From Escherichia coli (GTDB taxonomy: Bacteria > Pseudomonadota > Gammaproteobacteria > Enterobacterales > Enterobacteriaceae): 64,000 nucleotides of DNA. The DNA lies in NCBI RefSeq assembly GCF_003018115.1, contig NZ_CP027457.1; one strand, written 5' to 3'. Shown piece after piece: positions 56,738-57,703 of the stretch. The notes under the pieces are model-generated. The model had not been told where the DNA came from. It was given only the letters and a program-made list of their open reading frames with translations, and made no database searches. The translations under genes were made by a program, and so were the position numbers. Numbering within the stretch: position 1 is the first letter of the stretch; the number at the start of each line of letters is the position of its first letter.

Positions 56738-57703
56738 TCAATACCCCATATTTTTCTTCTTCTCTAACTCTTCTTTTGCGGTATCAGGCAGGTAAAGGGT
56801 GGATTTGGTTAACGTCAGCTTTTCAGGCATGGTGCCGTCTTTTTTGTATTTCTCCAGCGCGTCAAAAGCGGGTCCCGCCATGTTCGGCGTCAGTTCAACA
56901 CTGGCGTTCGCTTCGCCATCCATCATCGCTTTGTAGATGTCCGGTACACCGTCAATGGAACCCGTGAGGATATCTTTGCCCGGTTTCAGGCCCGCTTCTT
57001 TAATTGCCTGAATTGCACCAATCACCATGTCGTCGTTATGGGCGTAAACCATGCAGATGTTTTTGCCGTTGTTTTCCGCTTTGATAAAGCTCTCCATGAC
57101 TTCTTTGCCTTTACTGCGGGTGAAGTCACCTGACTGCGAGCGGATGATTTTGATATTTGGCGCACTCTTAATGGCTTCGGCAAAGCCTTTCTTACGGTCA
57201 ATGGCGACGCTGGCCCCAACGGTGCCCTGCAGCTCCACCACGTTGCATGGTTTGCCATTCACTTCTTTTACCAGCCAGTCACCGATCAACTTACCTTCGA
57301 GGATGTTGTCGGCAGTAACGGTGGTCATATAGAGAGATTTGTCTTTCACATCGATGGAACGGTCGAGCAAGAAGACCGGGATTTCGGCATCTTTCGCCTC
57401 TTTTAATACCGGTTCCCAACCTGTCGCGACCACCGGAGCGATAAAGATCGCATCCACCCCTTGTGCAACGAAGGAACGTACCGCTTTAATCTGGTTTTCC
57501 TGCTTTTGCTGACCATCGGCAATTTTCAGCGTAATTCCGCGTTTTTCGGCCTCACTTTTCGCCACATTGGTTTCTGCGGCGCGCCAGCCGGATTCCGATC
57601 CGACCTGCGAAAATCCTACGGTTAATGGAGCGGCCAACGCCATAGACGACATGGCTGCCGAGACTGCAGAGACTGCAGAGACTACAAGTAAGCGTTTCCA
57701 CAT
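56738..57703 (-). CDS. ytfQ: Periplasmic galactofuranose-binding protein YtfQ
   Basis: 321-aa ORF with signal peptide MWKRLLVVSAVSAVSAAMSSMALA; periplasmic sugar-binding fold sequence. Confidence 0.88.
   Translation of the reverse strand: MWKRLLVVSAVSAVSAAMSSMALAAPLTVGFSQVGSESGWRAAETNVAKSEAEKRGITLKIADGQQKQENQIKAVRSFVAQGVDAIFIAPVVATGWEPVLKEAKDAEIPVFLLDRSIDVKDKSLYMTTVTADNILEGKLIGDWLVKEVNGKPCNVVELQGTVGASVAIDRKKGFAEAIKSAPNIKIIRSQSGDFTRSKGKEVMESFIKAENNGKNICMVYAHNDDMVIGAIQAIKEAGLKPGKDILTGSIDGVPDIYKAMMDGEANASVELTPNMAGPAFDALEKYKKDGTMPEKLTLTKSTLYLPDTAKEELEKKKNMGY

Follow-up and report, generated by a model that had tools for sequence, protein, structure and literature searches.

The ytfQ gene and its repeat tract

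The window analysed here is a stretch of 64,000 nucleotides of Escherichia coli DNA. It carries ytfQ (also named gafA), the gene for the periplasmic protein that binds galactofuranose and arabinofuranose for the YtfQRT-YjfF ABC transporter; genomes identical to the window have it annotated as ytfQ. The open reading frame starts with MWKRLLVVSAVSAVSAAMSSMALA, followed by APLTVGF. The gene, the remaining operon (53118-56638) and the repeat tract are laid out as follows.

53118-54113, minus strand: yjfF, full-length open reading frame
54100-55122, minus strand: ytfT, full-length open reading frame
55136-56638, minus strand: ytfR, full-length open reading frame
56738-57703, minus strand: ytfQ (gafA) coding sequence, 321 codons plus stop, from the list of open reading frames
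57632-57703, minus strand: predicted signal-peptide coding region, codons 1-24, reading MWKR / LLVVSAVSAVSAAM / SSMALA
57711-57715, minus strand: Shine-Dalgarno-like GAGGA, 7 nt upstream of the ATG (57703-57701)
57655-57685, minus strand: 9-bp repeat tract in coding sense, codons 7-17 overall
57685-57677, minus strand: unit 1, GTAGTCTCT, codons 7-9
57676-57668, minus strand: unit 2, GCAGTCTCT, codons 10-12
57667-57659, minus strand: unit 3, GCAGTCTCG, codons 13-15
57658-57655, minus strand: partial unit GCAG
57668-57676, minus strand: the 9 bp that K-12 and about 99.8% of E. coli lack, their exact position within 57660-57683 being arbitrary
57661-57669, plus strand: AGACTGCAG, first copy
57670-57678, plus strand: AGACTGCAG, second copy, directly after the first
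57679-57687, plus strand: AGACTACAA, degenerate copy matching at 7 of 9 bases
Other side of the tract, plus strand: CCGAGACTG, a further degenerate unit, equal to GCAGTCTCG in coding sense

Two properties identify the protein as YtfQ/GafA, a substrate-binding protein of the CUT2 family of ABC transporters: the identity of its mature domain to PDB 2VK2, and an operon shared with ytfR, ytfT and yjfF. Residues 25-321 align with 2VK2 over all 297 matched residues with a single substitution (E=3.6e-193). YtfQ binds both galactofuranose and arabinofuranose (PMC10191376). The GAGGA motif is invariant in a four-way alignment, and its position 7 nt before the ATG supports the annotated start codon. In the RefSeq annotation of the identical L7_E1373 sequence, no pseudogene flags are present in the ytfQ operon. 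The gene, operon and neighbours are the same as those of K-12 YtfQ (GafA, b4227, PDB 2VK2), with ppa upstream in divergent orientation and ytfR, ytfT and yjfF downstream.

The spacer between ppa and ytfP (58544-58922) lacks the chpS-chpB toxin-antitoxin pair in the window, and the pair is also absent from the identical enterotoxigenic (ETEC) genomes and from GF3-3, STE15 and F6326-C1. In K-12 and many other strains it does lie between ppa and ytfP, and it thus represents a presence/absence polymorphism beside ytfQ. Separately, an IS1A-family transposase is found within the ytfQ region of NZ_CP104681.1 (strain 2022CK-00450), where ytfQ is annotated just as 'substrate-binding domain-containing protein'. 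The gene appears to be disrupted in that genome, which hints that ytfQ is dispensable.

The initial annotation had reported AGACTGCAG twice in tandem, followed by a degenerate third copy, at 57661-57687; both coordinates and sequence are exactly as it described, the plus strand reading ...GCCGAGACTGCAGAGACTGCAGAGACTACAAGTAAGCGTTTCCACAT... over 57657-57703. Tandem Repeats Finder delimits the tract as 57655-57683, with period 9, 3.2 copies and 95% matches, and the perfect period-9 stretch spans 57660-57683. A perfect 9+9 tandem is unremarkable by itself, because 0.21 are expected per 64 kb of first-order Markov sequence. The 15 consecutive period-9 matches of this tract were reached in none of 300 random sequences, the maximum being 12. 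The window contains one more perfect 9-bp tandem duplication and no other: in mpl (50708-50726, minus strand), CTTCTGCCA occurs twice and encodes the VAEVAE of Mpl. GF3-3 has the identical sequence there, so this duplication is not obviously polymorphic.

The same annotation had placed a 9-bp tandem duplication inside the signal-peptide coding region of ytfQ, and had set the 321-aa open reading frame against a length of about 318 aa for K-12 YtfQ. Alignment with K-12 bears this out. The ytfQ gene of K-12 MG1655 (b4227) encodes 318 aa starting with MWKRLLIVSAVSAAMSSMALA, and its tract reads ATA GTC TCT GCA GTC TCG GCA, exactly 9 bp, or one unit, fewer than in the window. The repeat counts of the two strains therefore differ, and the duplication is in frame (321 vs 318 aa). 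The additional 9 bp encode an added Ala-Val-Ser (or Val-Ser-Ala), which gives a signal peptide of 24 residues in the window compared with 21 in K-12. Residue 7 is Val in the window and Ile in K-12, Val7 being commoner among the E. coli genomes examined. The mature proteins are identical save for N156S (mature numbering).

Tract alleles and the lineages that carry them

A 501-bp query around the site matched the locus in 5,424 of 5,426 complete E. coli genomes, nearly always over 492 bp, compared with 501 bp in the window. When a 51-nt query had to be covered in full, just 7 of the 5,426 genomes were found to carry a three-unit tract, and it is on this decisive comparative evidence that we rate the duplication as real and rare. 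Three of the seven (F8111-1SC3, 2014EL-1345-2 and L7_E1373_ETEC; protein WP_032301153.1) have the exact allele of the window, hereafter allele A. The other four, namely 12867, NRZ14408 (two assemblies) and isolate 362, are one base off and encode WP_001589575.1 (allele B). Synthetic queries detected a one-unit allele in two genomes, 2015C-3108 and 27992, and no four-unit allele among the complete E. coli genomes. Two avian strains, STE15 and Jnd12, match the one-unit query ungapped and have the 315-aa length; the sequence of STE15 contains a different 9-bp deletion, located slightly downstream. The signal peptides of the alleles are as follows.

Common allele: MWKRLL(V/I)VSAVSAAMSSMALA, 21 residues
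Allele A (window): ...VVSAVSAVSAAMSSMALA, 24 residues
Allele B: ...VVSVVSAVSAAMSSMALA, 24 residues
Allele C: ...VVSAAMSSMALA, 18 residues
Allele D: ...VVSAVSAAMALA, 18 residues

The reading frame stays open in every allele, giving proteins of 315, 318 or 321 aa, and all length variants of the tract together make up about 0.2% of complete genomes. In the wider collection of NCBI, ENA and Logan assemblies, the exact protein was found on 279 contigs for allele A, 476 for allele B, 65 for allele D and 25 for allele C, while the common alleles are represented by at least 1,000 contigs.

Since assemblies occasionally miscount short tandem repeats, the extra unit might be thought to be a product of the assembler or of long reads. 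We give this reading practically no credence. An identical 501-bp sequence is present in three independent complete assemblies of different isolates, a tract of 27 bp is trivially spanned by any read, and the exact 321-aa protein recurs on the 279 contigs mentioned above; together the three assemblies and these contigs rule out a sequencing or assembly artefact. A three-unit ytfQ should accordingly not be treated as a mistake of annotation or assembly.

The origin of the window can be traced through its flanks. Over its last 24 kb, identity is 100% with 2014EL-1345-2 and with L7_E1373, and F8111-1SC3 is nearly identical. The nearest outsider is GF3-3, from guinea fowl, which is 99.3% identical and 9 bp shorter. 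E1373 is the reference of ETEC lineage L7 (phylogroup E, ST182, O169, CS6, STp; Indonesia, 1996), and F8111-1SC3 is one of the O169:H41 outbreak isolates in a CDC collection (PMC8085198). The third genome, 2014EL-1345-2, belongs to ST182 and was obtained from a human in the USA in 2014 (PMC8454413). The window is evidently derived from this clone of enterotoxigenic E. coli, O169:H41/L7 (ST182). Members of the clone dated 1996 and 2014 both carry allele A, which is a stable marker of the clone, not a private mutation. Being absent from 5,423 of the 5,426 complete genomes, allele A (WP_032301153.1) can serve, at most, as a simple sequence marker for a sub-lineage of O169:H41/L7 ETEC, a use of modest practical value.

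Fixation of allele A throughout O169:H41/ST182 is ruled out by F6326-C1 (NZ_CP024263.1), a complete O169:H41 genome that serves as an ST182 reference (PMC8454413): its ytfQ encodes 318 aa (WP_000265933.1) and belongs to another haplotype. Where F6326-C1 aligns with the window within 16124-64000, the identity is only about 98-98.8%, and its YtfQ, YtfR and TamB proteins differ from those of the window. This divergence suggests that there is a very large block of recombination, or else that the serotype/ST is heterogeneous here. The alignment between the two ends exactly at tRNA-Leu(CAA) (16124-16208), past which F6326-C1 carries a degraded integrase and an IS-rich island, so that the content beyond the tRNA differs from that of the window. 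Within the aligned part, about 700 bp at 30701-31409 show 83.5% identity, compared with about 98% in the flanks; the counterpart in F6326-C1 lies inside a hypothetical-protein gene between tabA and argF.

The ST182 genomics paper (PMC8454413) contains no mention of ytfQ, and no discussion of the signal-peptide indel was found in the literature on ytfQ with galactofuranose. The allele itself is already known in that public databases contain it, annotated normally as YtfQ. What can be added, and this is only mildly interesting, is that gains or losses of 9 bp have probably happened repeatedly at the ytfQ tract in different E. coli lineages.

Polarity and origin of the duplication

The orthologues that we read from Enterobacter, Klebsiella and Cronobacter are 318 aa long and have a 21-residue signal peptide of the form MWKRLL(L/V)VTAVSAAMSSMA(M/I/L)A, with the exception of P0010, a 301-aa form starting MAMAAPL. 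Because the orthologues of these outgroup genera are 318 aa long, the state with 318 aa and 21 signal-peptide residues is taken as ancestral and that of the window as derived. At the protein level the two units are more alike in E. coli (VSAVSA) than in Enterobacter, Klebsiella and Cronobacter (VTAVSA). Five two-unit genomes match the window over the 501-bp query except for the 9-bp gap (98.2% identity), and one of the five, Combat11I9, differs from the window by a single SNP in 885 nt of ytfQ and by another in the 300 nt upstream. The existence of such near-identical two-unit genomes argues that the duplication was a single recent step on one haplotype.

The sequence of the tract suggests how this step may have occurred. 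The middle unit, GCAGTCTCT, is chimeric, since it starts with GC as does unit 3 and ends with T as does unit 1. The ancestral arrangement would have been GTAGTCTCT-GCAGTCTCG-GCAG, in which two AGTCTC copies stand 9 bp apart. Were the nascent strand to copy the second AGTCTC and then re-pair with the first, the next bases to be copied would be TGC..., and the product would be GTAGTCTCT-GCAGTCTCT-GCAGTCTCG, which is exactly the allele of the window. The slipped-strand indel proposed in the initial annotation thus agrees with the junction sequence of the middle unit, which fits mispairing between the AGTCTC repeats. Other observations are consistent with slippage as well. First, the length of the indel equals the 9-bp period, and the K-12/common allele already possesses two units sharing AGTCTC. 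Second, gains (alleles A and B, +9) and losses (allele C, -9; WP_089520309.1) are found at one and the same tract, with two haplotypes for allele B and two for allele C. Judging the mechanism from its product, we consider replication slippage in a two-unit repeat that already existed to be the most likely origin of the duplication.

Like allele A, allele B encodes 321 aa and carries a 9-bp duplication that affects the signal peptide only. It duplicates GTAGTCTCT perfectly (giving VVSVVSAVSA), the unit being shifted, and it is one base away from allele A; a single C-to-T change in allele A would account for it equally well. Allele B occurs on two haplotypes with 28 differences in 885 sites, one of them identical to the two-unit strain E2865, and these haplotypes are 24 and 36 SNPs away from that of the window in 885 nt. 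The two haplotypes carrying allele C are 31 SNPs apart. This pattern indicates that 9 bp have probably been gained and lost recurrently at a slippage-prone tract, which would constitute a minor indel hotspot. Instead of independent recurrence, a short gene-conversion patch may have spread alleles B and C between haplotypes: in the alleles with two haplotypes, the nearest distinguishing SNPs lie at about -190 and +125, or at -210 and +95, relative to the ATG.

Allele A itself might have been imported by homologous recombination from a lineage already carrying three units. The locus is situated in a region with clear recombination signals, F6326-C1 differs by 1-2% over the aligned parts of 16124-64000 despite its identical serotype, and the two haplotypes of alleles B and C make short-patch transfer conceivable. 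However, among the 5,426 genomes allele A is seen on one haplotype in one clone only, so that no donor is visible, while two-unit genomes identical over the 501-bp query save for the 9 bp are present in other lineages. Moreover, an import would merely relocate the slippage event. We therefore regard importation as improbable. Taken as a whole, we hold with considerable confidence that the window carries a derived, in-frame 9-bp tandem duplication that most likely arose by slippage, is clonal in O169:H41/L7 ETEC and is most likely near-neutral.

The ytfQ tract resembles coding minisatellite/VNTR repeats, at which slipped-strand indels likewise have the length of one unit, a prior direct repeat, a chimeric new unit and recurrence. 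It differs from VNTR-type loci in that it comprises 2 to 3 units and varies in about 0.2% of genomes. Since its count is equal in clone members of 1996 and 2014, the tract is not useful as a hypervariable typing locus.

Signal-peptide geometry and functional weight

The chain of 2VK2 begins at Ala25 (APLTVGF...) of the YtfQ of the window. On the assumption that this start is the processed N-terminus of YtfQ, signal peptidase I would be expected to cleave after Ala24, between bases 57632 and 57631. Because 2VK2 starts at residue 25, the repeat lies wholly within the residues that precede the mature chain, and the extra Val-Ser-Ala falls wholly in the hydrophobic core of the predicted signal peptide. 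The n-region, MWKR, contains two basic residues and is untouched by the duplication. The hydrophobic core, LLVVSAVSAVSAAM, is 14 aa long with a mean Kyte-Doolittle hydropathy of 2.22, compared with 11 aa and 2.35 in the common allele. Uninterrupted h-regions are typically about 7-15 residues long, and a core of 14 residues with a hydropathy of 2.22 is ordinary. The c-region, SSMALA followed by AP, is unchanged, positions -3/-1 being A/A in all alleles. No lipobox Cys is present in residues 1-30, and there is no twin arginine, the basic pair being K-R. An n-region, an h-region and an A-x-A c-region, with neither lipoprotein nor Tat features, are those of a Sec-type peptide processed by signal peptidase I.

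We also considered an effect on translation initiation through mRNA structure, of which the folds of the 1-, 2- and 3-unit ytfQ alleles over -40..+60 and -30..+40 gave no sign. The minimum free energy is -18.8 kcal/mol for the window vs -18.6 kcal/mol for the common allele, with mean unpaired probabilities over -15..+3 of 0.48 and 0.49, respectively. Across all three unit numbers, the minimum free energies stay within about 2-3 kcal/mol and the unpaired probability over -15..+3 within 0.47-0.52.

Normal signal-peptide geometry, an unchanged cleavage motif and mature protein, unchanged mRNA accessibility and an intact operon, along with the presence of allele A in isolates from 1996 and 2014, lead us to infer that the duplication is most likely functionally neutral or nearly so, in agreement with the initial annotation, which had called it probably neutral. 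The biological weight of such a change, an in-frame length polymorphism in the cleaved signal peptide of a non-essential sugar-binding protein, is very small. The alleles form a natural series of 18, 21 and 24 residues, meaning that the signal peptide is retained in nature at ±3 residues.

An adaptive role is conceivable, in which the longer hydrophobic core tunes Sec targeting or export and hence the periplasmic level of YtfQ, and has been selected in the ETEC clone; in a broader version, the tract would act as a low-rate tuning knob for YtfQ export. The choice between Sec and SRP and the rate of export do depend on the length and hydrophobicity of the h-region. In addition, indels are seen repeatedly at this tract in unrelated lineages, three haplotypes having +9 and at least two or three having -9, and allele A is found in clone members of both 1996 and 2014 and on 279 contigs. 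However, all variants together account for only about 0.2% of complete genomes, gains and losses are both present with no consistent direction, and no allele has a hydropathy or a length outside the usual range. A slippage-prone repeat produces recurrence without selection, and the IS1 in the ytfQ region of NZ_CP104681.1 hints at weak constraint. Clonal expansion of a pathogen, driven by plasmid-borne virulence factors, accounts for how often allele A is seen (PMC8085198, PMC8454413). Selection for a longer core thus seems unlikely to us. Slimmer still is the chance of a recurrently mutating 'length dial', in which the 18-, 21- and 24-residue variants alter the route or efficiency of export and allele A was selected in the O169:H41 ETEC clone as opposed to hitch-hiking. 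If true, such changes in export would alter furanose scavenging.

We rejected the idea that the ytfQ tract is a phase-variable contingency locus, since the unit is in frame and the tract is stable within the clone. Contingency loci share with the ytfQ tract only the mutational process, repeat slippage. Unlike theirs, the 9-bp unit of ytfQ is in frame and downstream of the start codon, and therefore provides no on/off switch; nor is there within-clone variation, the three clone members having identical tracts.

The rest of the window was covered by Rfam searches at the gathering score and by tRNA searches. Rfam matches comprise a magnesium riboswitch (the mgtA leader) at 40139-40254, three naRNA4 (REP-type) elements at 23251-23422 and 50431-50508, and Ysr276 at 22223-22417, all of which are expected in this part of the E. 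coli chromosome.
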